From a virus, in the IMG/VR virus record IMGVR_UViG_3300006793_000013: a DNA stretch of 64,000 nt, one strand, 5' to 3'. The notes beneath the pieces are model-generated. The model was not told the origin of the DNA. It worked only from the letters and a program-made list of their open reading frames with translations, and searched no databases. Shown piece after piece: positions 33,823-59,334 of this stretch (its first letter is position 1; every line of letters begins with the position of its first letter). Made by a program: the position numbers and the translations under genes.

Positions 33823-34812
33823 ATGAATGATTTTACTCTTATTCCGTTCCACAACATTGTTAAGTTCGGACAAACTACAATGCTAAAACAGCCACTATTC
33901 AACGTTAGTTGGATACTTGGTCGCTTTTGTAATTACAGTTGTAGTTACTGTTGGCCGTATGCAAATTCAAATGTTCCGGATCATCAAGACTTTGAAGTGT
34001 ATACAAATGCAATAGATGAAATTAAAAGACAAGCGAGAGAAAACGGATTTACTGAGTTTCATTTTAGTTTCAGTGGAGGAGAACCAACAGCATATAAAAA
34101 GTTTGGTGACCTAGTTGAATACTATGCAAATGACGATGAGGCTAAGTATCAAAGCATACACCTTACAACTAATTTAAGTCCAGGTGAGAAATGGTGGGCA
34201 AGATTTATAGACAACACCAGTCACTTAACACGTCGCAGCATCACTGCAAGTTATCACGCAGAATTTGCAAACGAAAAAGACTTTGGTGATAGATGTTTGC
34301 AACTCATGGAGGGAGGAGTATTTGTTACAATTAATCAAGTTATGGTTCCTGAACACTTTGAAGAATACTATGAGCGTTGTAGTAGATTCGCAGACAAAGG
34401 AATTAACGTCACTCTTAAACCGCAGTCCGACCCTACCGCGTCTAGAATAGTTGATGGTTATACAGATGAGCAAATTGATAAGTTACAAACAGGCTTTCCA
34501 CAAAATTGGAAAGGCGAACAAGTCATGCAAATGTATTTGGAAGATGCCAAAGGAAACCATTACGGATTGGATCAAGCAGAAAGAATGAATGCATTTAACT
34601 TCAACAAGTTTAAAAATTGGCATTGCAATGCAGGGTATCAAAGCTGCATTATAAGGGGTGATGAAGTTAAGAGAGCATATAGTTGCAGCGATATCCCTTT
34701 AGGAACGCTACAGGGCGGTTTTACGCTGTTTAAGACACCATCTAAATGCATTACTAGCTCTTGTGTAAGCAGTGCAGACAGCAAGATACCAAAGGTACTA
34801 CATGAAAGTTGA
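33823..34812 (+). CDS. Radical SAM enzyme, subtype A, with C-terminal Twitch/SPASM-like Cys domain
   Basis: CNYSCSYC, FSGGEPT; CNAG...YSC...CITSSCVSSAD. Confidence 0.9.
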   Translation: MNDFTLIPFHNIVKFGQTTMLKQPLFNVSWILGRFCNYSCSYCWPYANSNVPDHQDFEVYTNAIDEIKRQARENGFTEFHFSFSGGEPTAYKKFGDLVEYYANDDEAKYQSIHLTTNLSPGEKWWARFIDNTSHLTRRSITASYHAEFANEKDFGDRCLQLMEGGVFVTINQVMVPEHFEEYYERCSRFADKGINVTLKPQSDPTASRIVDGYTDEQIDKLQTGFPQNWKGEQVMQMYLEDAKGNHYGLDQAERMNAFNFNKFKNWHCNAGYQSCIIRGDEVKRAYSCSDIPLGTLQGGFTLFKTPSKCITSSCVSSADSKIPKVLHES

Positions 34813-35407
34813 AATAGAAGATATAAAATTTTGGATGGATGCAGTTCGCAATAGCGAAGATAGAGATCGTACACTTGAAAGTTTTTGGGGTGGACAATTA
34901 AAATCTAAAGAATGGTTAGTCGAAACATTACAAAGAAATCATCATGTGTCCAATATTAGTTGTGTCATATTCGGAGGATGGAACGGAGTATTAGCAAATT
35001 TATTGTTTAACAGCACAATAGGTTTCAAGCATATCACAAGTGTTGATATTGATCCTAAGTGTGCAGAGACAGCAACCACAATTAATAAACGTCAAGAAAT
35101 GGAAGGGCGATTCACAGCAGTTACCGCTGACATGTGTGAGTATGAATATACCAATCAACCTTACATGGTTATTAATACAAGTTGCGAACATCTTACACAG
35201 CAACAATATAACAAGTGGGCAAAACGTGTGCCAAAGAGTTCAGAAGTAATTTTACAATCTAATAACTACTTTGAACTAGAAGAACATTTAAATTGTTCAA
35301 GAGACCTTGATAGTTTTAAAAAGAAATCTAAATTAAACACTGTGCTAGTTAAAGATCAATTAGAATTACCCAAATATACACGTTACATGCTTATAGGAAG
35401 ATTTTGA
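34802..35407 (+). CDS. Class I SAM-dependent methyltransferase
   Basis: VIFGGWNG, ITSVDIDP, TADMC, VINTSCEH. Start moved to 34802. Confidence 0.7.
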   Translation: MKVEIEDIKFWMDAVRNSEDRDRTLESFWGGQLKSKEWLVETLQRNHHVSNISCVIFGGWNGVLANLLFNSTIGFKHITSVDIDPKCAETATTINKRQEMEGRFTAVTADMCEYEYTNQPYMVINTSCEHLTQQQYNKWAKRVPKSSEVILQSNNYFELEEHLNCSRDLDSFKKKSKLNTVLVKDQLELPKYTRYMLIGRF

Positions 35408-36489
35408 TGTTTGACTTTTCAGATCTTAAAACAATACATATTGAGCTGACAACAAATTGCCAAGCCAAGTGTCCTATGTGTTCACGTAATATACACAGTG
35501 GTATTGAAAACCCATTACTAAAAATTGTTGGTTGGACATTAGAAGATTTCAAAACTATTATAAACAAAGAAGTATTAGAAACAGTAGACCGTATATACTT
35601 TTGCGGAAACTTTGGCGACCCTTTACTTAATGACAACCTTGTTGAAATGTGTAAGTACGCAAAAGAAACAAGTCCTAAAACTGCAATAGGAATTCACACA
35701 AACGGTAGTTTAAGAAATGCAAAATGGTGGACAGAACTAGCACAGTCTTTACCACAAGATCATTGTGTGTACTTTGCACTTGACGGTTTAGAAGACACTC
35801 ACAAATTATATAGAGTTGGCACTGACTGGAATAAGATTATTGAAAATGCAAAAACATTTATTGAAGCAGGTGGTCGTGCTAACTGGACTTATATCAAATT
35901 TAAACACAACGAGCACCAAGTAGAAGAATGTAGAAAGATTGCAAAGGAAGTAGGCTTTCAAGATTTCACAGTTAAGAACACATCAAGATTTTTAGTTGAA
36001 CCTAAGTATGATGTGTGGGACAAAAATAGAATACCTATATACAGTTTAGAAGCACCATCTGATACTGAAACACATTTTTTACCTAAAGAAGTAATTGATG
36101 ATTATAAGTCAGTGTTAGATGAAGCAGAGATAGACTGCCATGTACAAAAGATTAAAGAAATTTATATTGACGGATTTAAAACTTTATTACCTTGTTGTTG
36201 GTTAGCACAAACGCCAATGACGTTTTACGATCCTACACATATTTGTGAAGATGTAGTAGACATGTTGCGTAACCAATACAATAAAATGATAAGCGACTTT
36301 GGTGGTATACAAAATCTTGATGCAACAAAAGGAATAAAAAATATTATAAGTTCTGACGTATGGCAAAACATATGGAAGAAAAAGTGGAACGAAGATAAAA
36401 TGCTTATGTGTGCAAGAACATGTGGTAAGTTTAAAACTTTTGATATCTCTCAACCACAAGATCAATTTATAGAAAGAGAAATGCTGTAA
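35407..36489 (+). CDS. Radical SAM enzyme, subtype D, with C-terminal SPASM-like Cys
   Basis: CQAKCPMC, FCGNFGDP, HTNG; DC...PCCW...CARTCG. Confidence 0.9.
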   Translation: MFDFSDLKTIHIELTTNCQAKCPMCSRNIHSGIENPLLKIVGWTLEDFKTIINKEVLETVDRIYFCGNFGDPLLNDNLVEMCKYAKETSPKTAIGIHTNGSLRNAKWWTELAQSLPQDHCVYFALDGLEDTHKLYRVGTDWNKIIENAKTFIEAGGRANWTYIKFKHNEHQVEECRKIAKEVGFQDFTVKNTSRFLVEPKYDVWDKNRIPIYSLEAPSDTETHFLPKEVIDDYKSVLDEAEIDCHVQKIKEIYIDGFKTLLPCCWLAQTPMTFYDPTHICEDVVDMLRNQYNKMISDFGGIQNLDATKGIKNIISSDVWQNIWKKKWNEDKMLMCARTCGKFKTFDISQPQDQFIEREML

Positions 36490-37892
36490 TGACTTGGTAC
36501 TACGACAAAGAAGATACCAGACTAGGTAAGTTCCAAAGAGAACTTGCAGAAGCATCTACAAAATCATTTTGTGTGTTACCTTGGATACACATGGCAACTA
36601 GACCAAATGGTGATATGAGATTATGCTGTACATCTAATGCAAGTGGTGCAGGTGACGATCATGAAGTAGGACTTGTAAAGATGGAAGATGGCAAGCCTGC
36701 AAACTTTGGTAAACACACTCCTATGGAAGCATGGAATAACGATTACATGAAAAGTGTGCGTAAAACAATGTTACGTGGAGAAATTCCTGCAAGTTGTAAA
36801 GGCTGTTTCAAAGAAGAATCACAAGGTATTGTTAGCAAACGTATATGGGAAAGTGCAACGTGGAAAAATGACGAAGGTGTTGATATACCAGAGCTTATTG
36901 CACAAACACAAGAAGACGGAACCGTACCTGAACAATTACAATATCTGGATCTAAGATTAGGACATACATGCAATATTAAGTGTGTAATGTGTAGCCCTCA
37001 CGACAGTAGTAAGTGGGTTGCGGACCATAAAAAACTTATTCCTGTGCTACAAGACCCAGAAGTTAAAAGACAAATGCAGTGGGATAGAAAACTTTTTAAT
37101 AATAAATGGCATGAAAAAGATACTTTTTGGCAAGAGCTTAATGCACAAATACCTTACTTGAAGCAAGTATATTTCGCAGGAGGAGAGCCATTAATGATTA
37201 GAGAGCATAAACGCTTTCTAGAAGAAATTATTAAACAAGGGTATGCAGACAAAATATTAGTAAGATATAATTCTAATGGTTTACTAGTTGACGAAGAACT
37301 AATTGATATATGGAGTAAGTTTAAGAAAGTTAAGTTTGCTGTAAGTATTGATTCATATAAAAAGCGTGATGAATATATTAGATTTCCAACAGACTTTAAT
37401 CAAGTTGAAAAAACTTTACACATGCTAGACAACACACCAGATAACATTCATGTTAGTATTGCAACAGCAGTGCAAATATTCAATATAAAAACTATACCTG
37501 AATTTATTAAATGGAAAGTTAACAGTAATTTTAAAAAGATGAATGTTGGTTTAATTGACGGACATGTTATGGGTGGCGGTCTTGTAAATGCACATCTAGT
37601 ACACATACCAACATTCTTAAATATTACAATACTGCCTGAAAAAGACAAGCAAGAAGTACGTGAAAAGTTTGCTGAACTAAAACAATGGTTATGGGATAAC
37701 TTTACACAAGACGATGAGTTTTGGAAACACAATCCTAAAGGATGGCGTCAATGGGAAGGATTATTAAAGCATATGGATAGTTGTGATAACAGTCATATGT
37801 TACCTGGCTTTAAAGAATACGTTAATAAGTTAGATGCAATCCGTGGACTAGATGCAGCAAAAATATTTACTGAACTAGATCACTTACTTTAG
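36489..37892 (+). CDS. Radical SAM enzyme, subtype B (N-terminal Twitch-like domain)
   Basis: FCVLPW...GDMRLCC...CKGCFKEE; CNIKCVMC; FAGGEP. Confidence 0.9.
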   Translation: MTWYYDKEDTRLGKFQRELAEASTKSFCVLPWIHMATRPNGDMRLCCTSNASGAGDDHEVGLVKMEDGKPANFGKHTPMEAWNNDYMKSVRKTMLRGEIPASCKGCFKEESQGIVSKRIWESATWKNDEGVDIPELIAQTQEDGTVPEQLQYLDLRLGHTCNIKCVMCSPHDSSKWVADHKKLIPVLQDPEVKRQMQWDRKLFNNKWHEKDTFWQELNAQIPYLKQVYFAGGEPLMIREHKRFLEEIIKQGYADKILVRYNSNGLLVDEELIDIWSKFKKVKFAVSIDSYKKRDEYIRFPTDFNQVEKTLHMLDNTPDNIHVSIATAVQIFNIKTIPEFIKWKVNSNFKKMNVGLIDGHVMGGGLVNAHLVHIPTFLNITILPEKDKQEVREKFAELKQWLWDNFTQDDEFWKHNPKGWRQWEGLLKHMDSCDNSHMLPGFKEYVNKLDAIRGLDAAKIFTELDHLL

Positions 37893-38784
37893 TAAGGGGT
37901 ATATCAGCAGCACAAGTACACCACTTACGAGTACAAGTTATCCACTCTTCCGGTTGTTCAAAACTGCCGTCATAAATGTTACCTATACTTCCACCAACTC
38001 TACAAGTAGCACGATGAACTTCACCGTCCCAATTAATCATTAGGCTTTCGATACCTGCACTACATTTCCAACCTTCAAATTGATTTAGATGTTTTTTGAT
38101 AATATCGTTGGCATGCATTTTAGTTTTATCATCAATAATAACATTAGGTTCTACAGTAGATGTTTTAGACAATATCCATTCTAAGTCTTTACCTTCATAT
38201 TTTAAATCATCAAACACATCATGGTCACCTTCTGTCCATCTTATTCGTCTTACAACATAAGGAATACCGTGTCCGTCGAACATTGTAGCACACTCTTTTA
38301 CTCTATCCATAAATTTATGATGTGCCATTAAGTTAACTTGAAATGGCTTTTGCGGAGATGCATATCCTTCATTTATCTGAGAAAACATTAACACAGTTTC
38401 TGCACATCTTCTCCAATGCTCGTCATCTTCTACATGCAAACTAAACACAATATGATTTACGTTAAGGTCACTGTAGTACTTTGCTGTACGTGTTCCGTTA
38501 GTAGTTACATTGATCCAATCAACACGCTGACTTGCATGATCAACTAGTTCTGTAAACTGTGGGTGTACACACGGTTCACCGCCTGTAAAACTTACACGCA
38601 TTGATTTACCAGTTTCAGCTAGTGCATCAACTGCATCTATTAATACTTTAATATTTGTGTGTGGACTAGTGTTATCGTGTATTTCTGCTGGACAATAACT
38701 ACAATCAAAGTTACAACGTTTGCCAAGATTCCACTCAACATGAACGCTGTCTTGCCGATCATAACTAGACGCTATTTTAAACAT
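37867..38784 (-). CDS. Radical SAM enzyme, subtype A (paralog of 33823)
   Basis: VEWNLGKRCNFDCSYC, FTGGEP; CSAG...ATC...CTRKWCTCAAD. Start moved to 38784. Confidence 0.9.
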   Translation of the reverse strand: MFKIASSYDRQDSVHVEWNLGKRCNFDCSYCPAEIHDNTSPHTNIKVLIDAVDALAETGKSMRVSFTGGEPCVHPQFTELVDHASQRVDWINVTTNGTRTAKYYSDLNVNHIVFSLHVEDDEHWRRCAETVLMFSQINEGYASPQKPFQVNLMAHHKFMDRVKECATMFDGHGIPYVVRRIRWTEGDHDVFDDLKYEGKDLEWILSKTSTVEPNVIIDDKTKMHANDIIKKHLNQFEGWKCSAGIESLMINWDGEVHRATCRVGGSIGNIYDGSFEQPEEWITCTRKWCTCAADIPLTKVSDLVQ

Positions 38785-40048
38785 ACGGAGCAAACTCCGG
38801 ATTAATAACTTCAAATGGTCCTTGTTTACGACTCTTATCTAAGTTGCGATTAAAATTAATGCAGTCTTGCCATAGTTCGTTGTGTAGATCATCTGCTTCT
38901 AAGAAGTTAATATTATCCTGAATTTGCGTTAGTGTAAAGTCCTTAATACGTTCGTCACTTTTAACAAGTTTGTAATCTAACACTTTTGTTTTCATTGCTT
39001 CTAATTTAGCAATAACTTTTTGTTTTAGATCAGGCGGAATACATTGTGCTGATAACGCTCTTGGATATTGCACCCTATGACTATAGAAAATAATGTCCAT
39101 GTTTTCCATGAAGTATTCTATTACTTTATCTATTTGCATTATGTTGTTTGCTTGTACTGTAAATGCTCCAACTATTCTACTTACTGTTGGTATAGTTTTC
39201 ATTATCTTAATGTTTTCTTCAATCTCTTCAAACTTACCGTTTCCTCTGATGTATTCATATACATCATGTACACCATCAATTGAAACATTAACTGCAACAC
39301 TTTTAAACTTAGGCCAGTAATCGTGTATTGTACGTCCGCCTTTGATTCCTAGTGTGGTGCCGTTTGTTGCATACTTGATTTCGATATTTTTACCGTATGG
39401 TGCTAACATATCTAAAATTTTATAGTGCTGAGGATCCATTAAAGGTTCTCCACCTGCAAACTCTACACGTCTAAAGTGCGGCAGTAGTTTTTCAAAAGAC
39501 TTCCACCAGTTATCTGTATCATTAAATGCATCAATATACTTGCCTGGTGTGTCTACTAATTTATTAACTGTAGGTATAAGAAAGTTATTTTCTTTTTTAT
39601 AAAATTCTGTAACTTGGTCCCAGTCTTTCCATTGTGTACTATCTAATGGGTTACACATACGACACTTTAAGTTACATAGATTATTAAGTTTAACTTCCAT
39701 AGTAGGCATTTCAAACGGCATACTGTAATCATCTTCTAGTGCGTCTAATGCGTCTGGGTATAAGTTGATCCTTGCTTCAGGTATTACTCCTGCTGTATGA
39801 CGCTGTCGTAAGCTCTGTACACCCTGATCTTCTAATCTAAAGCAAGGCTCACAAACATCAGGACGTTCGTCATTCATAACCTGTCGACGAACTTCTTTCA
39901 TTTTGTCGCCGTTCCAAATCTCTTCTAGTGTGTTGTCTTTAATGTCTCCAATAGGAGCACTACGGCAACAGATCTTAATTGCGCCATCTTCTCTTGTTGC
40001 TAATCCTGTAAAAGGATGCATACAAAATGTTTTACTTTTGCATGGCAT
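38777..40048 (-). CDS. Radical SAM enzyme, subtype B
   Basis: FCMHPF...GAIKICC...CEPCFRLE; CNLKCRMC; FAGGEP. Confidence 0.9.
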   Translation of the reverse strand: MPCKSKTFCMHPFTGLATREDGAIKICCRSAPIGDIKDNTLEEIWNGDKMKEVRRQVMNDERPDVCEPCFRLEDQGVQSLRQRHTAGVIPEARINLYPDALDALEDDYSMPFEMPTMEVKLNNLCNLKCRMCNPLDSTQWKDWDQVTEFYKKENNFLIPTVNKLVDTPGKYIDAFNDTDNWWKSFEKLLPHFRRVEFAGGEPLMDPQHYKILDMLAPYGKNIEIKYATNGTTLGIKGGRTIHDYWPKFKSVAVNVSIDGVHDVYEYIRGNGKFEEIEENIKIMKTIPTVSRIVGAFTVQANNIMQIDKVIEYFMENMDIIFYSHRVQYPRALSAQCIPPDLKQKVIAKLEAMKTKVLDYKLVKSDERIKDFTLTQIQDNINFLEADDLHNELWQDCINFNRNLDKSRKQGPFEVINPEFAPYV

Positions 40049-40769
40049 TCATTACTCCCCATTGTCTTTCTTGACACCAAAAACATTTCTTACATGTTGG
40101 TACATATTGTCCGGGTGTGTATGTTTTATAATCTAGTCCTTTGAAGACTTCCGGATATTGATCGTTGTCACCTTCGCAACTTCTAGTGATGTTTAACAAC
40201 TCAGCAATATCATTTTTTATGTATTGTCCTATGACCCAATCTTTTTTACTAGCAATAAAAGGGTGACAAACTGTTACGCCCATATGTGTCATTATAGCAT
40301 CTATTGCCGGCTCTTGTCTATCACTCATTGCACCGTCAAATTCTACATCAGGATTTAGTGTAACGGCTGCATACCATGCATCTAAGTTTACTTTGTGTGC
40401 AAGGTACTCGTTGAACGATCTTAGTATAATTCTGTTACCTGACTTCATTTTGCCATTTTCATCTTTAATCATAGTGGTATGTGGCTCTTCAAGTTCAGGT
40501 GGAATAAAGTTAACGTGTCTTTCAAACTCAAGATCAGGAAAATGTCCTACAAACCAATCAAATACTTCTGCTGAAATATGCTCTTGCCATGGTCGTGATT
40601 TCCACATTCTAACCTGTGTACTAATGTGTACTTTACAGTTGTCATGTAGGTTTTGGCAAATTAAGTATGCAAGTAACGCACTATCTGCTCCACCACTTAA
40701 ACTAATACCAACGTTTTTCCATTTTATATCCATTGGTAAGATCACATCGTCAATCTTTATTTTACGCAT
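40032..40769 (-). CDS. QueC-like PP-loop ATPase
   Basis: ISLSGGADSALL; TRSCEG...CKKCFWCQER resembles the QueC Zn site. Start moved to 40769. Confidence 0.75.
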   Translation of the reverse strand: MRKIKIDDVILPMDIKWKNVGISLSGGADSALLAYLICQNLHDNCKVHISTQVRMWKSRPWQEHISAEVFDWFVGHFPDLEFERHVNFIPPELEEPHTTMIKDENGKMKSGNRIILRSFNEYLAHKVNLDAWYAAVTLNPDVEFDGAMSDRQEPAIDAIMTHMGVTVCHPFIASKKDWVIGQYIKNDIAELLNITRSCEGDNDQYPEVFKGLDYKTYTPGQYVPTCKKCFWCQERQWGVMNAMQK

Positions 40770-40774
40770 ATTCA

Positions 40775-40818
40775 TATTTACCAAGTTATGTACACAGTTA
40801 ATTTAGTTCCGGTAAATA
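40775..40818. promoter_or_regulatory. Divergent pair of late-type promoters, both TAAATA-N5-ATG
   Basis: Minus: TAAATA(40780-40775) TGAAT ATG. Plus: TAAATA(40813-40818) TGCAT ATG(40824). Confidence 0.7.
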
Positions 40819-40823
40819 TGCAT

Positions 40824-41480
40824 ATGATCCAAAATACCAAATATACAGTATCTTTAGATGATATAGCAGGCGTAATGGGCGATGTGTATGATATTGGAAA
40901 GTTTGATATATCTGAGCAAACTGGCAGCTTCTTTTATGATCCTTGGCAGTTGAAGCCGGAGTTCTTAGGAACAGCATGGGAAACTATTTGGAATAGTTTG
41001 CCAGAACCTAAAGGACAAGGAAGAATTATTATTTTAGAATCGCCTAGTTGTTATACTTCACATGCAGACATTGACAATCGTTGGCATTTAAATCTTTGCG
41101 GAGATGAAGCCTACCTTATTGATTTAGAAAAAGAAGAAATGTTTAAGACTGTGCTTGACGGCAAATGGTATGACATGGATGCTGGTGTTCCACACACTGC
41201 TATGAATATAGGTGCTGAGATAAGAGCGCAGTTAGTTGTAAGAAAATTACTACCTAAAAATATTATTAATGATCCGCAACATGTTAGAATTGCAGGAGTC
41301 AAAGGAAACATACGATACGAGTTTGATAAACATTTAAGTCCTTGGTTAAACAGGGCAGCAAATAACACAAAAATTATTAGCAATGTAAAAGTTGTTAAGC
41401 AAGGCATAGAGTTTGATATTGAAAAGGGCTTGGTGCCAATAATCCCAGTACCACAACAAATGGAGTTAGTAATACTATGA
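40824..41480 (+). CDS. Asp/Asn beta-hydroxylase-like cupin oxygenase with C-terminal extension
   Basis: RIIIL..PSCYTSHADID.RWHLNL...DAGVPHTAMN.G..IRAQLV. Confidence 0.7.
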   Translation: MIQNTKYTVSLDDIAGVMGDVYDIGKFDISEQTGSFFYDPWQLKPEFLGTAWETIWNSLPEPKGQGRIIILESPSCYTSHADIDNRWHLNLCGDEAYLIDLEKEEMFKTVLDGKWYDMDAGVPHTAMNIGAEIRAQLVVRKLLPKNIINDPQHVRIAGVKGNIRYEFDKHLSPWLNRAANNTKIISNVKVVKQGIEFDIEKGLVPIIPVPQQMELVIL

Positions 41481-48004: not shown

Positions 48005-48009
48005 AGCTA

Positions 48010-48025: not shown

Positions 48026-48030
48026 TCTAC

Positions 48031-51274: not shown

Positions 51275-51279
51275 ATAGT

Positions 51280-51309
51280 TACTTATGCAGTTATATGCTC
51301 TTATAAATA
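51280..51309. promoter_or_regulatory. Divergent late-type promoters (TAAGTA-N5-ATG minus; TATAAATA-N5-ATG plus)
   Basis: Minus: TAAGTA(51285-51280) ACTAT ATG. Plus: TATAAATA(51302-51309) GTAAT ATG(51315). Confidence 0.68.
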
Positions 51310-51314
51310 GTAAT

Positions 51315-52271
51315 ATGGATAATAGATTAAGCCTACCCAGTGAAAATCCTGTATGCATTATTATAAACAATACCTGTAATCTTACATGTAATGCATGTGG
51401 TACATTGCAGAATTATAATTTTGCAGGAGTAATGTCTTGGAAGGAAGAAAAGCATCTTTATGAAGAATGGGCTAAGAAAGCAAACTTCCCAGAGATTGAC
51501 ATACTAGGAGGAGAGCCATATCTTAATCCTGAACTGTTAGACTGGGCATTAGGTATTAAAAGCCTATGGCCAGACAGCCAAGTGAACGTTGTAACTAACG
51601 GAACATTATTAGGATTGAAAAAGAATGTTGAAACAACTCGTACATTTTTAGAAGCAGGTGTATGTTTAAATTTATCAGGACATGATCAAAAAGATATTCC
51701 TAAATTTAAAATGTTCATTGATAAAATTCTAGAACCATTCGGCGACAGAGCTGAAAGGATAAATCCAGATTATGATGATCCATACGGATTTGAACATTTA
51801 GATATGTGGCAGATTGATGGAAAGTATGCTATTGGACATACTATTGTAGATAAGATGTTTCCTAACTATGTAAAAGAAGTAAAAGACAATACAATAATTT
51901 TAGATGATGGCGACAGAGAAGAGAGTCATGATGCATGTTTATACGGACAACACTGCCATACACTACAACGAGGCAAACTATTTAAATGTCCTCTAGTGCT
52001 AAACTATGATGAATTAAAAACACAAACATATTACGAAGAAAGAGCATACCCATTATTAGAAGATTATAAGCCATTAACAGTAGACCAAGACAAAGAAACA
52101 ATGCAAGACTTCTTTAACAATATAGGAAAGTCAATTCCAGCATGTTCTTTGTGTGCTATGCACAAAAAACCAAAGCCAAAAGAACTTTCAGTTGATGTAC
52201 AATTTGATAAAAACAGAAAGAAAGCATTCAAAGGAGTAGACCTTGTCAAAGTTAAAAATCTCACATCTTGA
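51315..52271 (+). CDS. Radical SAM enzyme, subtype C
   Basis: CNLTCNAC, ILGGEP, VTNG; C..GQHC...GKLFKCP...CSLC. Confidence 0.9.
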   Translation: MDNRLSLPSENPVCIIINNTCNLTCNACGTLQNYNFAGVMSWKEEKHLYEEWAKKANFPEIDILGGEPYLNPELLDWALGIKSLWPDSQVNVVTNGTLLGLKKNVETTRTFLEAGVCLNLSGHDQKDIPKFKMFIDKILEPFGDRAERINPDYDDPYGFEHLDMWQIDGKYAIGHTIVDKMFPNYVKEVKDNTIILDDGDREESHDACLYGQHCHTLQRGKLFKCPLVLNYDELKTQTYYEERAYPLLEDYKPLTVDQDKETMQDFFNNIGKSIPACSLCAMHKKPKPKELSVDVQFDKNRKKAFKGVDLVKVKNLTS

Positions 52272-53079
52272 GTGGCATGTAGCTCACTCATGTAATCTTA
52301 CATGTGTAGGGTGTGGGCATTTTAGTAATCATAGACATACAGGTATAGTGAAGTATGACGAGTTAGAATCTTGGTATAAGAGCTGGGCTCATAGACTTGA
52401 TCCAGAAACCATTGATATACTAGGAGGAGAGCCTCTACTAAACAAAGACATTTATAATATTCTTTTCTTAACAAGAAAGTACTGGCCCGACTGCGAAAAC
52501 TTAAATTTACAAACTAATGGCTTTCTGCTTTACAAGTATCCTGACTTACCTAAAGTGTTAGAAGAAACTAATATATCTATTAGTCTTAGTAAGCATAGTA
52601 CTAAAGAAGCATATATGAAAAAGTTTGCTCCTGCAGAAGAATTACTATTACAATGGAAAAAAGATTATAACATTAAAGCAGAAGTTGCTCCGTGCCATAC
52701 ATATTGGTTTGAAATATACAAAGGGTATGGAAACAATATGATGCCTTATGAAGACAATGACGCACAGAAGAGTTGGGACAATTGTATTACAGGACAAGAT
52801 TGTTTCCAACTACTAGATAACGAAATATACAAATGTGCGCCACTAGCATATCTACCATTCCAAAAGAAATTATACAACTTATCTCCTAAATGGGATCCCT
52901 ATTTAAAGTATAAGCCAATAACAGCAGATTGCACAGATCAAGAACTAGCAGAGTTTTTTGCTAGAGGATGTGAAAGTTTTTGCTCAATGTGTCCTTCCAA
53001 TCCAAAGCGTATGGATCAACAAGGCGATCCGACAACTCCAAGATCACACTACGAAAACATAAAAATTCAACAGGTATAA
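52243..53079 (+). CDS. Radical SAM enzyme, subtype C (tandem)
   Basis: CNLTCVGC, ILGGEP, QTNG; C..GQDC...IYKCAP...CSMCP; TTG start with AGGAG. Confidence 0.9.
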   Translation: MSKLKISHLEWHVAHSCNLTCVGCGHFSNHRHTGIVKYDELESWYKSWAHRLDPETIDILGGEPLLNKDIYNILFLTRKYWPDCENLNLQTNGFLLYKYPDLPKVLEETNISISLSKHSTKEAYMKKFAPAEELLLQWKKDYNIKAEVAPCHTYWFEIYKGYGNNMMPYEDNDAQKSWDNCITGQDCFQLLDNEIYKCAPLAYLPFQKKLYNLSPKWDPYLKYKPITADCTDQELAEFFARGCESFCSMCPSNPKRMDQQGDPTTPRSHYENIKIQQV

Positions 53080-53087: not shown

Positions 53088-53095
53088 TATAAATA
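53088..53095 (+). promoter_or_regulatory. T4-like late promoter TATAAATA-N5-ATG
   Basis: TATAAATA CTAGT ATG(53101). Confidence 0.7.
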
Positions 53096-53100
53096 CTAGT

Positions 53101-54036
53101 ATGCAAAAGTTTCCATACGATAAAAAACATTTACCATTTGGACATTCAGGAGCAGTCCTCGATCAAGAAGTAATGAACTTTTTGAACATGATGCCTCTTA
53201 GATTCACAGAACATATGTATGATGTAAATGTAACTGAAGAATATTTAGAAAGATATCATGCTTGGATTAGAATGTCAGCTCTAAATTTAATGGCAGGCAT
53301 AGATGATTTTCCTTACAAATGTTACTCTCATGGTACTACTGAATCATTTGATAAATTTTACATGAAGCATAAGGATAGAAGATTCAGATGTTTTAGAGGT
53401 GAATATCTTTATCACCAGTTAGCATGGCGTGATAAATTTAATTGGTTGTATGCCGATGATGATTGTTTAGATGCCAATGACGCACTAGTTATTAGTTTAC
53501 CTTTTAGTAATACAGGAAACAAACACAAGTTACACGAAGCAGCATTAGATGAATGTGATAGACTAGGTATACCTGTTTTACTTGACTGTTGCTATTTTGG
53601 TATATCGTCTGCTATAGAATTTAACTTTAAGCACGAATGTATAACTGATATTGTTTTTAGTTTATCAAAAACATTTCCAGTAGCACATGCAAGGATAGGT
53701 ATGCGTTTAAGCAAATACGATGACGATGATACTTTATTTGTTTATAACAAAAATAGTTACGTGAATAGACTAGGTGCTTATATAGGTTTACAATTAATGG
53801 AAAATTATAGTCCTGACTTTATCTATAAAAAGTATAAATCACAACAATTAGAATTTTGTAAACATTTAGGTGTCGAGCCTAGTAGCACGGTATTATTTGG
53901 TATTGCGCCTCAAGACAAGTATGTAGAATACGATAGAGGTGGCGGCAGTCCTGATGCTGAACTGAATAGGCTCAGTTTTCATAAATTTCTACCTATGTCA
54001 ATTGAGGAGTTCGCACAGTGCATAAAGCAAGAGTAG
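53101..54036 (+). CDS. PLP-dependent fold-type I enzyme (aminotransferase-like)
   Basis: ISLPFSNTG, VLLDCCY (PLP Asp), FSLSKTF (Schiff-base Lys), ARIGMR. Confidence 0.75.
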   Translation: MQKFPYDKKHLPFGHSGAVLDQEVMNFLNMMPLRFTEHMYDVNVTEEYLERYHAWIRMSALNLMAGIDDFPYKCYSHGTTESFDKFYMKHKDRRFRCFRGEYLYHQLAWRDKFNWLYADDDCLDANDALVISLPFSNTGNKHKLHEAALDECDRLGIPVLLDCCYFGISSAIEFNFKHECITDIVFSLSKTFPVAHARIGMRLSKYDDDDTLFVYNKNSYVNRLGAYIGLQLMENYSPDFIYKKYKSQQLEFCKHLGVEPSSTVLFGIAPQDKYVEYDRGGGSPDAELNRLSFHKFLPMSIEEFAQCIKQE

Positions 54037-55214
54037 TTAATATAGAATGGACGCCTGATAATAATAGGTGGAATCTTGATAAACAAGTATTCAGCAAATT
54101 AAAACTAAAGTGGATATTCAAAGAACTTAAACAAGCAGCCAAAGACGGGTGTGATACTGTCATTGCAGTAATGATGATTGATGGTGTTTTAAATCTAGAG
54201 CCGAATATATGGCCAGGTGAAGTTGCTAAGATGAAAGAGCGTTGTACAAAACTAGGAATAGAAAAACTAGTGTTTGTTTCAGGCCATGGTGGACACGAAT
54301 GGATTATGCCTGTAGCATTTGATAAAATGTATTCTATTGATTACACACTTCAATTCACTTATAAATCTTACGAAGATAGAATTAAAAAAAATAAACTAAC
54401 TGAATACAATCCACATGCAAATAAATTTTTATTCCTTGGCGGTGTGCCATCGAGAATGAATCGTATAGGATTGCTTTACAAGTATTATAAACTTGGAATG
54501 TTAGACTATAATGCTATTTGGACATTCTTTGTTCCATGGACAGAAGAAGAACGTAAAGTATGCAAGGATATAATGCATATTTTATCAGAAGAAGAATTTA
54601 ACGAGTTTTGTAATTTTGCTGATAGAAGAATAGGTGATGAATACGAAAATGCTAAAAAGTTTTTTGCAGAAGAATATTATCAAACAGGTGATTGGCATGA
54701 TGTTGGTGATACTGATTGGGCTAAAGCACCTGCACTAATTGACAGTAGCATATTTCCAGAAACGTGTTTAAGCATTATTAGTGAAGGCCCTAACTATTGG
54801 AATTATAGTACAAACAATTCTTTTGTGACAGAAAAATTTTGGAGAGCAGTATTTCATAAACACCCGTTCTTGTTTGCAGGCGACATAGATCAGTTCAAAT
54901 ATATGGAAAATCTTGGGTTCAGAACATTTACAGAATACATGACTATACCAGAGTATGCACACCTTGAAACAGAGGAGCAACGTCTTGATGCAATTGTAAC
55001 TAATACAGCAGACTTTTTAAAACTTAAGAAGCCGCAAGGACTAATTGATGATATAGAACATAACTATCAATTAGCAAAGCGTTATCTTGATAAACAACAT
55101 TTACTTTTTGATTATTTGGTTGAGCATTATGGTGCACCAAGAGAGGAAGTAAACTATTATCTTAATCAAACAGGATATAGTAATCTAGTACAGAGACCGC
55201 CATCGTATGAGTAA
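54018..55214 (+). CDS. Hypothetical protein, possibly glycosyltransferase-like
   Basis: FLFLGG...R, CLSIISE, FVTEKFWRAV..KHPFL, LGFRTF; resembles GT-B C-terminal halves. Confidence 0.45.
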   Translation: MHKARVVNIEWTPDNNRWNLDKQVFSKLKLKWIFKELKQAAKDGCDTVIAVMMIDGVLNLEPNIWPGEVAKMKERCTKLGIEKLVFVSGHGGHEWIMPVAFDKMYSIDYTLQFTYKSYEDRIKKNKLTEYNPHANKFLFLGGVPSRMNRIGLLYKYYKLGMLDYNAIWTFFVPWTEEERKVCKDIMHILSEEEFNEFCNFADRRIGDEYENAKKFFAEEYYQTGDWHDVGDTDWAKAPALIDSSIFPETCLSIISEGPNYWNYSTNNSFVTEKFWRAVFHKHPFLFAGDIDQFKYMENLGFRTFTEYMTIPEYAHLETEEQRLDAIVTNTADFLKLKKPQGLIDDIEHNYQLAKRYLDKQHLLFDYLVEHYGAPREEVNYYLNQTGYSNLVQRPPSYE

Positions 55215-56121
55215 ATGTGCAGCATTTTATAAGCATACTAATGTGCGTAGTGGAAATAGAATATTTCCTTGCTGTCGCTACAAAGAACCTGTTGCTGTTT
55301 TTGACGGTAATCTAAATAAGATACTTGACTTACCAGAAATGCAAAAGTTAAGAGAAACGCCGGTTGAAGATAATCCTAATTGTGCAAAATGCATACACGA
55401 AGAGTCACTAGGCAAGAATAGTTTGCGTGAACGCTTTAATGCTGAGTATGACACAGAAGAAGTAAAATTAGAATATTTAGAAATAGGGTTTGATAATATT
55501 TGTAATGCAGCCTGCGACGGTTGTTATCCAGAGTTTAGCAGCGAGTGGGGTAAGATACTAGACCCAAATAAAAAGAAACATATTGTAAGCAGTGATGAAA
55601 TAACTTCTATTCCAGACACTGTAACAAAGATATTATTCTTAGGTGGCGAACCGTTAATGACTAACAGGCATAGACGCTTACTAGAAATGGTAAACGATCT
55701 AAGTAAAATGACAGTGATATACAACACTAACGGTACATTTATGTTAGACAAAGAAACAATAAGGCAACTTGAAAAATGTAAAAGTGTTGAATTCATTCTA
55801 AGTCTTGACGGCTATGGCGAACTAAATGAGCGTGTAAGAAAAAACTGCGAATGGAATAAGATAGAACGCTTTATCGATCAAGTAAAGATATGGGGTTACA
55901 AATTAAGTGTAAACACTGTGCTACATAGAAATAACTATCACGGACTTGTTGATTTAGAAAACTATATTAACAGTTTAAAAGATGTTGAGTGGTCAGTAAA
56001 CATACTTACATTTCCTAAACAATTAGACGTTAACACAGTTGAAAATAAACAAGAAGTAATAAACAGTATAGCAAAAACAAATATAGCAAACAAGGAAGCA
56101 CTTATTAACCATGTTGCATGA
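55207..56121 (+). CDS. Radical SAM enzyme, subtype B
   Basis: CAAF...IFPCC...CAKCIHEE; CNAACDGC; FLGGEP, NTNG. Confidence 0.88.
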   Translation: MSKCAAFYKHTNVRSGNRIFPCCRYKEPVAVFDGNLNKILDLPEMQKLRETPVEDNPNCAKCIHEESLGKNSLRERFNAEYDTEEVKLEYLEIGFDNICNAACDGCYPEFSSEWGKILDPNKKKHIVSSDEITSIPDTVTKILFLGGEPLMTNRHRRLLEMVNDLSKMTVIYNTNGTFMLDKETIRQLEKCKSVEFILSLDGYGELNERVRKNCEWNKIERFIDQVKIWGYKLSVNTVLHRNNYHGLVDLENYINSLKDVEWSVNILTFPKQLDVNTVENKQEVINSIAKTNIANKEALINHVA

Positions 56122-56659
56122 TATTAAAACATACGTTGACCATGATAAGTTTTTACAAGCAGTAGAAGCAGCAAAGACTGCTATACCTAATAAGTTTTGT
56201 ATTGTAGAACATCTAGTTGATGTAACAGAATATGATGACAGTCCTGACTTAACAGAAATACATCCAAAAGATAGAGATAACGTAGACTTCCGTATTTGTA
56301 TATTTCACCCAGATAAAGATAATCGAATACCAAGACTAAAACCTGTTTGTGATATACTTGAAAGTATGCAAGGTGTTGAACGTGCTGCTATTATAAACAT
56401 AGGCCCTAAGTCTATTATGCCAAAGCATATTGATGATATGGAAAGGCCGTTGTACGAAGAAACTCCATTCTATAATGTGTTTACAGGTTTCCATATTCCA
56501 CAAGGAGAGTTAGGTGTTAAAGTTGGAGAAGATATAGCAGACGTTAGCAAACCAATTGTTTTTAATGCACAAATACCACACGAAGCATGGAACCACACTT
56601 CGCAAGACTGGCTGTCTTTGCTGATATATATTAACAAAGATACATTTAAAAAGGAATAA
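56111..56659 (+). CDS. AspH-like cupin oxygenase
   Basis: IINIGPKSIMPKHID...FNAQIPHEAWN. Confidence 0.72.
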   Translation: MLHDIKTYVDHDKFLQAVEAAKTAIPNKFCIVEHLVDVTEYDDSPDLTEIHPKDRDNVDFRICIFHPDKDNRIPRLKPVCDILESMQGVERAAIINIGPKSIMPKHIDDMERPLYEETPFYNVFTGFHIPQGELGVKVGEDIADVSKPIVFNAQIPHEAWNHTSQDWLSLLIYINKDTFKKE

Positions 56660-56660
56660 C

Positions 56661-57713
56661 ATGAAAGTATCTACTCACAACCATTGGGATCCCTTAGAAG
56701 AGATAGTAGTTGGAATAGCTGATCATGCTAGAGTACCAACTGTTGATCGTAGCACTATGAGTATGAGCTACACTAATCATCCTATAGATTTAATTAAGCC
56801 TTTAGAAGGCGCATACCCAGAATGGCTTATTGACGAAGCCAACGAAGATTTACAAGGACTGAGTGACGTTTTATCTAAAGAAGGTATAAAAGTACACAGA
56901 CCTATTCCTATTGATCACAGTGTAGAATTTAGTACACCTGAATGGAAAACTACAGGTTGGTATACGTGGTGTCCTAGAGATTTACTATTGCCAATGGACA
57001 ACTTAGTAATTGAAACTCCAAGTGCTTGTCGTGCAAGGCAATATGAAACAAGAGCATACAGAAACATCATGTTAGAAGCAATTGACGATGGTGTTGAATG
57101 GATTGCTGCACCTAAGCCAATATTGCCAGATGAAGGATATCAATTTGAAGATATTGAAGGCAAGCCTAGTTTGCTAAACTTAGAACCTATCTTTGATGCA
57201 CCAAATTGTGTACGTTTAGGTAAAGACATATTATTCCAAATTAGTAACACAGGTAACCACTGGGGACTGAAATGGTTACAAAATGTTTTAGAGCATAGAG
57301 GTTATCGTATACACCCTGCAGAACATATTTACAGTTACGGACACTTTGATAGCACAATAGTACCTTTACGTCCTGGATTAGTATTACTAAACAGTTCAAG
57401 AGTAACCGCAGAAAACTGTCCTAAGGTATTTGAGAAATGGGATAAGATTTGGTTTGATGATTGTGTTGCTCAAGGAAGTAAGATACCAGGAGGTGTTGCT
57501 CCTTGTAGTCCTTATATAGGAATGAATATTTTAAGTATTAATCACGATACTGTTGTGGTAGATGATACTCAAGAACCTTTAATGAAAGAATTAGACAAGC
57601 ATGGTATTACTAGTGTACCTGTACGCTTTAGACATGCTATGACTTTAAGTGGTGGTTTGCATTGTGCAACACTTGATTTAAAACGTAAAGGTGTATTGGA
57701 GGATTATACATAA
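56661..57713 (+). CDS. Amidinotransferase, StrB1 (inosamine-phosphate amidinotransferase)-like
   Basis: HNHWDPLEEIVVG, ARVPTVDRS, CPRD, PIFDA, HFDSTIVPLRPGLVL, GGLHCATLD: catalytic Asp/His/Cys present. Confidence 0.88.
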   Translation: MKVSTHNHWDPLEEIVVGIADHARVPTVDRSTMSMSYTNHPIDLIKPLEGAYPEWLIDEANEDLQGLSDVLSKEGIKVHRPIPIDHSVEFSTPEWKTTGWYTWCPRDLLLPMDNLVIETPSACRARQYETRAYRNIMLEAIDDGVEWIAAPKPILPDEGYQFEDIEGKPSLLNLEPIFDAPNCVRLGKDILFQISNTGNHWGLKWLQNVLEHRGYRIHPAEHIYSYGHFDSTIVPLRPGLVLLNSSRVTAENCPKVFEKWDKIWFDDCVAQGSKIPGGVAPCSPYIGMNILSINHDTVVVDDTQEPLMKELDKHGITSVPVRFRHAMTLSGGLHCATLDLKRKGVLEDYT

Positions 57714-58207
57714 TGCTAAAGTACTGGGGCAAAGTAGATGACTTCTGGAAAGAAGATTTACAGAATTACAAATGGCCCGAATCTGTAAGCACAGGACAGA
57801 ATGAAAATTTTCATGATGCTTACTTTGATGAAACAAATAATTTAATGCAAGGGTTTGATGGACAATTACCAAAATGTTATGGTAGGTTCTTTAAAGAACT
57901 ATACATTGAAGATGAAGCAGTCAGCAGTATAAGCTGGACACAAATTAAGCCGTCAGGAACTATTCCTGTACATGCAGACAAATTTTTTAAACTTAGAAAA
58001 AAGCATAATGTGGACATTGATGATTGCTTAAGATATCTTATATTTTTAGAAGATTGGACATTAGGACATCTTGTTGAGTTTGAGCAACAACCTATTACTA
58101 AATGGGAAAAAGGTGATGTATGGACATTTACACATGAAGATATACACTGTGCTGGAAATGCCAGCAACTTCAACTTTAATACTTGCCAAGTAAACACGAG
58201 GAAATAA
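57713..58207 (+). CDS. AspH-like cupin oxygenase (similar to 48846)
   Basis: QIKPSGTIPVHAD...EKGDVWTF...HCAGNAS. Confidence 0.72.
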   Translation: MLKYWGKVDDFWKEDLQNYKWPESVSTGQNENFHDAYFDETNNLMQGFDGQLPKCYGRFFKELYIEDEAVSSISWTQIKPSGTIPVHADKFFKLRKKHNVDIDDCLRYLIFLEDWTLGHLVEFEQQPITKWEKGDVWTFTHEDIHCAGNASNFNFNTCQVNTRK

Positions 58208-59334
58208 TGGAACTAACATCACTTCAAAAAGAATTTAATAATTGTACATTAGAATACGATCTAGAAAAATTCAACTGGCCTGCATGGGCGTTAAGTGTTG
58301 TACAAGAAGTAGCACCACAGGTTACTAAACTAGAAACACTACACGAAGTACTATCTCCTAAAGAAATTGTAACTGTTAGTAGACATGTACAAAATGCATG
58401 TAGTCGTAAAGACTTTATGGAACGCTTTGATGCTTTTGTTGCTGAATATATTCCGCAGCGTATCGATAATAAAAGATACATGATCCAGCGTCAAGGAACG
58501 TTGCGTGTTGTTATTCCTAATCAAGCAAGTGTAGGACGAAGACTTGCTTTCCATCAAGGTATCTTTGTAGGTAATGGCAGAGGTTGTAGAACTATATGGA
58601 CACCGTTTACAGAAGCACGTGGTACTAACACTATGTGGATGGTAGATGTAGAAAATAGTAGAAGAATTACAAAACAAATTATGGCTGAGAAATGGAGTTT
58701 GGAACAGATAGAAGATGAATGTTTGAAACATGCGTTTCCCATTACACTAAAGCCAGGACAAAGCCATTTGTTCTTTCAAGAGATGTTACATGGTAACGTA
58801 AACAACGAAGAAGGTTATACACGGGTAAGCATGGACATGCGTATCCTTATTGAAGGTGAAGAATACGGTAGAAGACATCCAGGAGGATTTATGCGCTTAC
58901 CAGGCGATCATGAAGTTGCTGGAGAAGCAGACTATACAGGAAAAAGTGCTATAACATATGCAGGCTGGAACAGTAAGTTTTCAAATCAAATTCCGTTACC
59001 TATGCAAAGAGCAATTATTGAGCCATACTGCATTAAAAACAAAATTGAATATACAAGTTACGAATTTGAAAACGAACACCTAGACTGGATGCCTGGTTTA
59101 GAATTTTATATTAATGAACAACCAGATGTTATTGTACTATGCAGTATCTATTCAATGACTGATGATGTTGAAAGACGTAAAGAGCTTTTTAATCTAGCAT
59201 TAGAGAAAGGTGTTGAACTACACTTTGCAAATGAATTGTGTTCTATAAAGACAGTTAAAGACCTTGACAAAATTGAAACTTATCTCAACTTTGCTGTTGC
59301 TAAAAAAGATCCTTATGTTTGGGAATTAGTGTAA
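58207..59334 (+). CDS. Two-domain protein: 2OG-Fe(II) oxygenase plus 'sporadic carbohydrate cluster'-like domain
   Basis: N-half: RVVIP...FHQG...RTIWTPFT...LHGNVNNEEGYTRVSMDMR. C-half: IPLPMQRAII..YC.KN...VLCSIY...ELHFANE. Confidence 0.7.
   Translation: MELTSLQKEFNNCTLEYDLEKFNWPAWALSVVQEVAPQVTKLETLHEVLSPKEIVTVSRHVQNACSRKDFMERFDAFVAEYIPQRIDNKRYMIQRQGTLRVVIPNQASVGRRLAFHQGIFVGNGRGCRTIWTPFTEARGTNTMWMVDVENSRRITKQIMAEKWSLEQIEDECLKHAFPITLKPGQSHLFFQEMLHGNVNNEEGYTRVSMDMRILIEGEEYGRRHPGGFMRLPGDHEVAGEADYTGKSAITYAGWNSKFSNQIPLPMQRAIIEPYCIKNKIEYTSYEFENEHLDWMPGLEFYINEQPDVIVLCSIYSMTDDVERRKELFNLALEKGVELHFANELCSIKTVKDLDKIETYLNFAVAKKDPYVWELV

Follow-up and report, generated by a model that had tools for sequence, protein, structure and literature searches.

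A densely packed radical SAM and oxygenase gene island in an uncultured marine jumbo phage, with a possible role in late glycosyl decoration

The uncultured marine jumbo phage represented by IMG/VR record IMGVR_UViG_3300006793_000013, of which a stretch of 64,000 nucleotides was analysed (hereafter the window), carries at positions 33823-59334 an island of 31 open reading frames (ORFs; g01-g31), ~25.5 kb long, whose ends overlap or nearly abut. Nine of the products are radical S-adenosylmethionine (SAM) enzymes and 9-11 are iron oxygenases of the cupin or 2-oxoglutarate (2OG) type; they are accompanied by enzymes of sugar, amino-group and amidino chemistry and by two predicted glycosyltransferase folds. 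The explanation tentatively preferred here, though short of being probable, is that a heavily tailored glycosyl unit is synthesized in the cytoplasm late in infection and is then transferred to a macromolecule, probably the virion proteins. The enzyme families, and phage modules with several radical SAM genes, were known before; new here are the size of the island, with nine radical SAM and ~10 oxygenase genes the largest version encountered, the two glycosyltransferase folds, an amidinotransferase block common to cultured phages, a contrast in promoter class and the mosaicism of the cassettes.

A preliminary description of this DNA had reported about 30 contiguous genes, nearly all of them for enzymes, and the 31 tightly packed ORFs agree with it. 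They form blocks of alternating strand in which the largest intergenic gap is 55 nt, and the starts of g07, g08, g22 and g23 were corrected to an internal ATG directly after a TAA(A/G)TA motif. Several genes are paralogues by internal BLAST (g01 and g05; g04, g06 and g27; g17, g23 and g24; g10 and g18; g11, g12, g20 and g30; g14 and g15). Neither Rfam nor tRNA scans gave a match anywhere in the window. Pfam scans of the 31 island proteins detected no nonribosomal peptide synthetase or polyketide synthase (NRPS/PKS), transporter or protease, and the 46 proteins examined (these and 15 flanking ones) include no hydrophobic segment, flippase, polymerase, polyprenyl-phosphate transferase or membrane protein. 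The earlier statement that NRPS/PKS genes and an obvious precursor of a ribosomally made peptide with post-translational modifications (RiPP) are absent is thereby confirmed. The sole small ORF nearby encodes a 65-aa Lys/Ala-rich, histone-H1-like protein (33521-33718, minus strand) within the 364 nt that separate thyX from the island, and since the gaps within the island do not exceed 55 nt, there is no room for a precursor gene. A RiPP cluster was rejected on these grounds and because no RiPP recognition element (RRE), leader peptidase or exporter, nor any Pfam family of this kind, was found.

The radical SAM enzymes were counted correctly in the preliminary description. Radical_SAM (PF04055) exceeds its gathering threshold in exactly nine proteins (g01, g03, g04, g05, g06, g17, g23, g24 and g27), with scores of 34-56 bits (cut-off 29.5); all nine contain CxxxCxxC and eight contain GGEP. 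Three of them, g04, g06 and g27, reach the 170-bit cut-off of NCBIfam NF033640, a family of radical SAM enzymes with an N-terminal twitch (a partial SPASM domain) that has no assigned function, and in these an N-terminal C..CC..C..C pattern is conserved. The remaining six have generic NCBIfam matches only.

The earlier estimate of about ten oxygenases holds as a count, but just three are of Pfam grade (g13 by 2OG-FeII_Oxy_3, g22 and g28 by Asp_Arg_Hydrox), the rest being assigned by motif or profile. The triad is recognized by alignment alone in g08, g19, g11, g12, g20 and g30, and g31 is a lead only. Within the family of g11, g12, g20 and g30, P-H-x-D...H is invariant in the homologue alignment, and hhalign relates g08 to the AspH-type set of g22 and g28 at 70% (E 4e-5) with the motifs in register. 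Two more oxygenases, matching 2OG-FeII_Oxy_5 (g33 and g34; 60894-62016, minus strand), lie just past the fibre gene on the right, so the oxygenase-rich region reaches beyond the stated end of the island.

Most of the other enzymes proposed from the sequence were also recovered: the methyltransferase g02, the nucleoside diphosphate (NDP)-sugar epimerase g09 with its strong Pfam score, the two small short-chain dehydrogenases/reductases (SDRs) g14 and g15 (adh_short was matched in five of their homologues in a Pfam scan of the homologue sets), the pyridoxal phosphate (PLP) enzyme g25 (Aminotran_1_2 in three of seven homologues, with no DegT_DnrJ_EryC1 match by Pfam) and the amidinotransferase g29. 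The last has homologues among annotated phage amidinotransferases, keeps the catalytic motif and is 34% identical to ORF309 of the cyanophage S-SCSM2R and 30% identical, over 97% of its length, to gp086 of Campylobacter phage CP220. The QueC-like ATPase g07 fared less well. Its SGGADS and C-terminal Cys motifs stand, but its PP-loop matches are weak (QueC Pfam E 0.14, no NCBIfam match) and no family passes threshold; neither a profile search of PDB sequences nor tblastn against cultured phages gave a match. Such profile searches likewise yielded nothing usable for g21, g19, g25 and g26. For the two kinase-fold proteins g10 and g18 a match to PDB kinases exists but is weak (E 1e-3), and a GNAT-like assignment of g16, at E 0.14, found no support. 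An aminocyclitol or streptidine flavour of the chemistry proved weak: g29 with its predicted catalytic Cys does supply the StrB1-like amidinotransferase typical of streptidine pathways, but membership in such a pathway was rejected because no cyclitol synthase is present (no Pfam match to 2-deoxy-scyllo-inosose synthase or inositol-phosphate synthase among the 31 proteins) and the aminotransferase is of class I/II rather than of the DegT/StsC type.

One glycosyltransferase-like protein had been noted, and predicted structures both uphold this claim and extend it to a second protein. Nearly all of the top 50 structure matches of the AlphaFold2 (AF2) model of g26 are glycosyltransferases, covering residues 1-372 with Z scores of 11.8-8.4, and the T4 alpha- and beta-glucosyltransferases are among its best GT-B matches (Z 10.9 and 10.4). 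The AF2 model of g21 has two domains. The N-domain resembles GT-A proteins at Z 9.4-9.7, namely the glycosyltransferase domain of LH3 (9.7), PBCV-1 A64R (9.5) and STIV A197, and the C-domain is methyltransferase-like (Z 8.6 to EgtD). The g21 family is found only in viruses and comprises at least 414 protein clusters, all of hypothetical proteins and all lacking both a Pfam domain and a name that denotes function. The 3' end of g22 overlaps the start of g21 by 14 nt, and this pair is conserved across loci; a fusion of g21 to an Asp/Arg hydroxylase, indicated by a protein-atlas lead (score 0.82), was not confirmed, and only the overlapping gene pair stands.

The window has 15 instances of TAA(A/G)TA located 2-12 nt before the ATG of a long ORF, compared with 0.2 in shuffled sequences, and the motif heads all eight blocks (at g01, g07, g08, g18, g19, g22, g23 and g25), just as had been described. 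Three of the block-head sites are bidirectional units of 26-55 nt. The full T4-type late element, TATAAATA, is matched by only two of the eight heads. The same hexamer precedes each of the three fibre-like genes (g39 at -11, the gene for a 2218-aa protein at -39 and g32 at -46), whereas sigma-70-like promoters of the type TTGACA-N17-TATACT precede the neighbouring sugar and repair genes g38, g44 and uvdE. This distribution suggests that the island may be transcribed at the same stage as the tail-fibre genes, as a late-type unit, and lends support from sequence to the late timing proposed earlier.

The system is widespread and its genes travel together. In IMG/VR, relatives of the radical SAM protein g04 number at least 260; identity is 74-100% for the 80 loci that were kept. 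The core g01-g08 remains together in the fetched relative loci; the units g10/g18, g11/g12, g19-g20, g21-g22 and g25-g31 recur in dozens of them with changed order and orientation. Larger related phage contigs carry 9-15 radical SAM genes each, with CheckV completeness implying genomes of ~360 kb, and in a 356-kb NCBI contig the AspH-g21 pair lies amid radical SAM and TauD genes. Homologues are thus not scattered, in agreement with the earlier view of a conserved, co-occurring system. Among 50,697 phage records there was no nucleotide match for either half of the island.

Set against its nearest relative, IMGVR_UViG_3300021389_002073, the island proves to be a mosaic of cassettes: the two sequences are 98-99% identical over 26.5-41.5 kb and over 47.3-50.6 kb, and identity drops to 75-68% immediately to the right of the g21/g22 junction; the epimerase gene g09, absent from that relative, and the radical SAM gene g17 are precise single-gene indels. 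A more divergent, phage-like contig, MED685, encodes ThyX, DUF2201, more than 14 radical SAM proteins, a carbamoyltransferase, a GFO_IDH_MocA-radical SAM fusion, a Nucleotid_trans protein and an epimerase. Genes of the island, with identities of up to 95%, or else phage-like content, also occur in contigs binned into metagenome-assembled genomes (loci L102, L103, L105/L179, L138, L173 and L174) assigned to Thermoplasmata, Crocinitomicaceae, Gammaproteobacteria, Rickettsiales, Verrucomicrobiales and Puniceispirillum; these contigs are probably misbinned phage DNA.

Table 1. Genes and control elements of the island and its flanks (bits are Pfam scores unless another family is named; SD, Shine-Dalgarno sequence; pLDDT, predicted local distance difference test)
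Feature	Position	Strand	Assignment	Basis
g01 head	33809..33825	+	TAAATA, 8 nt before g01 ATG; heads g01-g04	motif scan
g01	33823..34812	+	radical SAM, C-terminal Cys cluster	51 bits; 25% identity to g05
g02	34802..35407	+	SAM-methyltransferase-like; probable start ATG 34802	Methyltransf_25 E 4.6e-4; same family in 3 homologues
g03	35404..36489	+	radical SAM	40 bits; generic NCBIfam matches only
g04	36489..37892	+	radical SAM, N-terminal twitch/SPASM-like domain	NF033640 394 bits
g05	37867..38814	-	radical SAM, g01 paralogue	56 bits
g06	38777..40048	-	N-terminal-twitch radical SAM	NF033640 333 bits; 27% identity to g04
g07	40032..40769	-	QueC-like PP-loop ATPase	SGGADS and C-terminal RSCEG...C..C..C, invariant in 17 homologues
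g07/g08 head	40769..40826		bidirectional unit, GGTAAATATG on both strands; heads g07 (-) and g08 (+)	
g08	40824..41480	+	cupin, AspH-like Fe(II)/2OG motif HxD...H...R	invariant H92, D94, H136, R146
g09	41477..42391	+	NDP-sugar epimerase/dehydratase (extended SDR)	GDP_Man_Dehyd/Epimerase ~130 bits (131)
g10	42381..43073	+	kinase-fold-like, g18 paralogue	profile vs PDB Ser/Thr kinases E 1.3e-3, weak
g11	43060..43644	+	small cupin (P-H-x-D...H)	family alignment; weak hhalign to AspH set, motifs in register
g12	43641..44168	+	small cupin, g11 paralogue	internal BLAST, alignment
g13	44153..44767	+	prolyl-hydroxylase-type 2OG-Fe(II) oxygenase	2OG-FeII_Oxy_3 45 bits
g14	44764..45222	+	short SDR-like	TGxxxGxG and NAY motifs; adh_short in homologues
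g15	45219..45794	+	short SDR-like, g14 paralogue	adh_short in homologues
g16	45768..46325	-	GNAT-like only at E 0.14	conserved in relatives
g17	46309..47376	-	radical SAM	45 bits; single-gene indel vs nearest relative
g18	47309..48004	-	kinase-fold-like, g10 paralogue	same weak PDB kinase profile match
g18/g19 head	48004..48033		bidirectional unit, 26 nt, TAAATA on both strands; heads g18 (-) and g19 (+)	
g19	48031..48846	+	cupin-like, invariant H-R-D...H	homologue alignment
g20	48846..49346	+	small cupin (g11 family)	internal BLAST, alignment
g21	49324..50556	-	two-domain: GT-A-like N-domain, Rossmann methyltransferase-like C-domain	AF2 pLDDT 88.6
g22	50543..51274	-	Asp/Arg-beta-hydroxylase-type cupin	Asp_Arg_Hydrox 26.6 bits
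g22/g23 head	51274..51317		bidirectional unit: TAAGTA (-) for g22, TATAAATA (+) for g23	
g23	51315..52271	+	radical SAM, g17/g23/g24 family	34 bits
g24	52243..53079	+	radical SAM	Pfam; 43% identity to S-SCSM2R radical SAM 'maturase' ORF306
g25 head	53088..53103	+	TATAAATA, 5 nt before g25 ATG	
g25	53101..54036	+	fold-type-I PLP enzyme, class I/II aminotransferase-like (S-L-S-K)	invariant D162, K190
g26	54018..55214	+	GT-B-fold glycosyltransferase-like	AF2 pLDDT 79
g27	55207..56121	+	N-terminal-twitch radical SAM	NF033640 170 bits, exactly cut-off
g28	56111..56659	+	Asp/Arg-hydroxylase-type cupin	23.9 bits
g29	56661..57713	+	pentein-fold amidinotransferase, catalytic Cys motif GGLHCATLD	homology to phage amidinotransferases
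g30	57713..58207	+	small cupin (g11 family)	internal BLAST, alignment
g31	58183..59334	+	possible PhyH-type oxygenase (lead only)	near protein cluster has PhyH in 17% of members
g32	59326..60819	-	tail-fibre-like (Mtd_N head, GDDST repeats); TAAATA and SD	Mtd_N match
g39	30557..31372	-	fibre/virion structural protein; TAAATA	PHROG 6002 and 23059
left sugar flank	26061..30550	-	phosphomannomutase (PMM), g44, GT-A-like, KdsA, QueD-like (CxxxHGY), CST-I/MptE-like	

The preferred explanation can be laid out as a series of steps whose order is itself proposed. A sugar-type precursor, supplied by the PMM and KdsA of the left flank, would be phosphorylated or activated by the kinase-fold proteins g10 and g18. 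Redox chemistry and epimerisation would be carried out by g09, g14 and g15, amination by g25, transfer of a guanidino or amidino group from arginine by g29, ATP-dependent amidation of a carboxylate by the QueC-like g07, and methylation by g02 and the C-domain of g21. The nine radical SAM enzymes and ~10 Fe(II)/2OG-type hydroxylases would functionalise C-H bonds. The two glycosyltransferase-fold proteins, g21 (GT-A-like) and g26 (GT-B-like), would then attach the product to a macromolecule, most probably the fibre or surface proteins of the virion. By analogy with the collagen lysyl hydroxylase LH3, the overlapping AspH/GT-A pair g22-g21 suggests a logic of hydroxylation followed by glycosylation.

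The sugar chemistry proposed earlier is apparent from g09 and the folds of g21 and g26, from the PMM, KdsA, CST-I-like and GT-A-like proteins of the flank, and from glycosyltransferases beside the related cassettes of S-SCSM2R and CP220. Because nucleotide-sugar enzymes and glycosyltransferases thus recur in the window, its flank and two cultured phages, a sugar-type product is the best single reading. The tail-fibre-like gene g32 remains next to g31/g30 in three lineages, and this adjacency, together with the motif common to the fibre genes and the lack of membrane or export machinery, favours a macromolecular acceptor in the cytoplasm. The mosaicism of the cassettes, which recalls the host-recognition islands of pelagimyophages, the carbamoyltransferase, Nucleotid_trans and epimerase genes of MED685, and the amidinotransferase and prolyl dihydroxylase detected in S-SCSM2R virions also speak for this explanation. 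The decoration with a glycan or cyclitol first proposed is partly supported, by co-occurrence, late-type control and sugar chemistry; its aminocyclitol flavour is weak. A bolder version, in which this would be the first radical SAM-dependent virion decoration, a late pathway placing a structurally unprecedented, C-modified amidino- or guanidino-glycan on fibre or capsid proteins after their hydroxylation, is unlikely.

A number of findings weigh against the glycosyl-unit explanation. No island enzyme has a substrate-level assignment, and g25 is a class I/II aminotransferase instead of a DegT-type sugar aminotransferase. Structural similarity is moderate, with fold matches at Z 8-12; the N-domain of g21 has no clear DxD motif and ties with GlmU-type nucleotidyltransferase domains at Z 9.2. 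The late timing is read from a motif. Fibre proteins contain no collagen-like or other obvious acceptor repeats. Unlike the arrays of the island, the bacterial members of the N-twitch radical SAM family are mostly single genes without an island, and their neighbours show no glycan enrichment, being PhyH or WelO5-type oxygenases and methyltransferases and not glycan loci. Finally, the QueC-like gene, combined with a QueD-like gene outside the island, points to deazapurine chemistry.

This last point leads to the strongest rival, hypermodification of DNA or nucleotides, in which a non-canonical base (a 7-deazapurine or a hypermodified pyrimidine, possibly glycosylated or amidinated) would evade host nucleases; it is rather improbable. 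The QueC-type Cys motif of g07 would fit such a route, as would the upstream QueD-like gene, whose distance from the island is 4-12 kb in four relatives and 4 kb here, and from the CP220 module ~6 kb. A gene for the thymidylate synthase ThyX, which is not a hydroxymethylase, adjoins the island and is also found near the divergent MED685 cluster, the T4 glucosyltransferases are among the best fold matches of g26, and the island has no membrane proteins. The mixture of kinase, PLP and radical SAM enzymes is reminiscent of thymidine hypermodification pathways. In addition, the Campylobacter phages that bear the module replace deoxyguanosine (dG) with 2'-deoxy-7-amido-7-deazaguanosine (dADG) (PMC10516641). 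However, DNA-modification genes are normally early or middle, whereas the island has the late-type motif of the fibre genes, and its nine radical SAM genes far exceed any known base-modification route. Pfam and NCBIfam models revealed no TET/JBP or AlkB-type oxygenase, DpdA/TGT or above-cut-off QueE among the island proteins (QueE models reach 18-35 bits, with cut-offs at 206-260, and no TGT family matches), and the oxygenases are of the AspH, prolyl 4-hydroxylase (P4H) or PhyH type, typical of protein or small-molecule substrates. The company of WelO5 and PhyH oxygenases and methyltransferases kept by the bacterial N-twitch enzymes would suit an unattached small metabolite, diffusible or intracellular, made from an amino acid or sugar, for instance a toxin, a signal, a cofactor or an inhibitor of enzymes. 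A class I/II aminotransferase with an arginine-dependent amidinotransferase is typical of amino-acid-derived natural products, and the homologous trio of S-SCSM2R was read by its authors as 'antibiotic synthesis genes', without experiments (PMC12801897). This idea ranks next in likelihood and is improbable: the island lacks a scaffold synthase and a carrier protein as well as genes for export and self-resistance, its two glycosyltransferase folds imply an acceptor, and the inferred late expression would leave little time before lysis.

The two remaining alternatives retain a macromolecular target. Remodelling of the host envelope, with the product placed on lipopolysaccharide, capsule or S-layer and blocking superinfection or the re-adsorption of progeny to debris, is the published reading of glycosyltransferase-rich islands of pelagimyophages and cyanophages (PMC7029224, PMC12801897), and the KdsA and CST-I-like protein of the flank and the PAP2 phosphatase beside the CP220 module are in keeping with it. 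It is nonetheless very improbable here, given that none of the 46 proteins is a membrane protein, polyprenyl-phosphate transferase, flippase or polymerase, that the island motif is late-type while the Kdo/PMM flank is early-type, and that a surface change near lysis would be of little benefit. Least likely of all is direct modification of virion or host proteins without a glycan, the radical SAM enzymes and hydroxylases acting on side chains by hydroxylation, epimerisation, cross-linking or methylation. AspH/P4H-type oxygenases usually act on proteins, SPASM/twitch radical SAM enzymes often act on peptides, and a prolyl dihydroxylase was detected in S-SCSM2R virions (PMC12801897), but a precursor peptide, an RRE domain and a protease are all absent, and this reading would leave unexplained the epimerase and SDRs, the aminotransferase and amidinotransferase, the PP-loop enzyme and the glycosyltransferase folds.

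The surroundings of the island include fibre genes on both sides, as claimed, g39 having PHROG structural and tail-fibre matches and g32 an Mtd_N match. In the left flank, one sigma-70-like promoter, close to consensus as is the other, stands before g44 and a second before uvdE, upstream of PMM and outside 26061..30550. Genes at 25009-28613 (minus strand) encode the PMM, which is of eukaryotic type (92 bits), a GT8/Nucleotid_trans-like protein and a UvdE-like endonuclease, and the QueD/PTPS-like g41 (29394-29843, minus strand; PTPS 52 bits) has CxxxHGY in place of the usual CxxxHGH. An Fe/Mn superoxide dismutase is encoded at 23980-24558 (plus strand; Sod_Fe_C 87 bits), where the in-frame ATG at 23995, preceded by TAAATA at a distance of 5 nt, is a likelier start than the listed GTG at 23980; the enzyme might protect the O2-labile Fe-S enzymes of the island. 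Farther away, a 539-aa protein resembles flavin-dependent tryptophan halogenases (7538-9157, minus strand; phrog_2928, E 6e-147), and S-SCSM2R likewise has a PrnA near its glycosyltransferase/radical SAM region. Among fibre-like genes, an 824-aa protein (10707-13181, minus strand) has a C-terminal half like S8 serine peptidases, with 26-27% identity to those of jumbo phages Atu_ph07 and Phosso.

To our knowledge, long radical SAM pathways have not been reported in phages, and here a conserved core of five radical SAM enzymes with variable cassettes is fixed in abundant uncultured aquatic jumbo phages. It is biochemically odd that phages living in oxic seawater combine O2-labile radical SAM enzymes with oxygenases that depend on O2. 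Identifying the product would assign several orphan families (the N-twitch radical SAM enzymes, the g21 GT-A/methyltransferase and the small cupins), would explain the 16-year-old puzzle of the Campylobacter phage module, and could expose new chemistry of phage-host recognition or anti-defence, on virion glycans or on DNA. If the bolder reading of a radical SAM-dependent virion decoration holds, an exchange of cassettes among strains would serve to adjust host range or to protect virions against defences.

The glycosylation of virions by chlorovirus PBCV-1 A64R, by mycobacteriophage systems of the Che8 type, which act on capsid and tail, and by Mimivirus L230/R699 is, like the proposed pathway, cytoplasmic, virus-encoded and independent of membranes. 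Mimivirus R699, at Z 8.6, is a further match of the g21 N-domain, and so, though weakly, is the glycosyltransferase of Che8; the hydroxylase-glycosyltransferase pairing of LH3 and L230 resembles g22-g21. The likeness to g21 is at the level of fold (6-10% identity), virion glycosylation is a proposal for the present phage group, and the viral systems have no radical SAM enzymes and no comparable set of oxygenases.

Cassettes with radical SAM genes had been seen earlier, and so the preliminary description of the system as undescribed holds only in part: multi-radical SAM/amidinotransferase modules of phages date from 2010 (PMC2853527) and radical SAM cassettes from 2020 (PMC7029224), and neither was assigned a function. 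In the Campylobacter phages CP220 and CPt10 (Firehammervirus) the module was described as interchangeable (Timms et al. 2010, PMC2853527), in agreement with the turnover of cassettes in the island. Its order in CP220 is four radical SAM genes, a hypothetical gene, the amidinotransferase gene, a fifth radical SAM gene and then genes for two GT-A proteins. The two systems have in common at least five radical SAM enzymes and a pentein amidinotransferase, and g03 and g05 are 23-27% identical to CP220 radical SAM proteins. The Campylobacter module differs in its size (~10-12 genes), its lack of a large 2OG oxygenase set, and its host and habitat; no relationship to the N-twitch enzymes has been shown for it, and it offers no mechanism to borrow.

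Gradual, cassette-by-cassette change between close relatives, as in the island, is also a property of the host-recognition clusters of pelagimyophages and cyanomyophages, which are large, non-syntenic, hypervariable islands of the structural region where fibres, glycosyltransferases and radical SAM cassettes are mixed; those of pelagimyophages differ from one another by 'radical SAM cassettes' (Zaragoza-Solas et al. 2020, PMC7029224). The phage of the window is not a close relative; it carries a much heavier load of enzymes, and the island has a strongly conserved core instead of being purely variable. In ORF302-310 of S-SCSM2R, a cultured T4-like marine phage, homologues of g24, g30 and g29 lie in the same order (43%, 27% and 34% identity) embedded among five glycosyltransferases; the run reads glycosyltransferase, GT25, glycosyltransferase, PLP enzyme, radical SAM, glycosyltransferase, 2OG oxygenase, amidinotransferase and GT2. 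That region differs in having a single radical SAM gene and a PLP enzyme annotated as 3-amino-5-hydroxybenzoate (AHBA) synthase, which is DegT-like and not of class I/II. CsCl-purified S-SCSM2R virions were found to contain the prolyl dihydroxylase and an amidinotransferase other than ORF309, namely ORF266, whose entry directly follows those of KdsB (ORF264) and KdsA (ORF265) (PMC12801897). Through S-SCSM2R and CP220, the chemistry is experimentally tractable.

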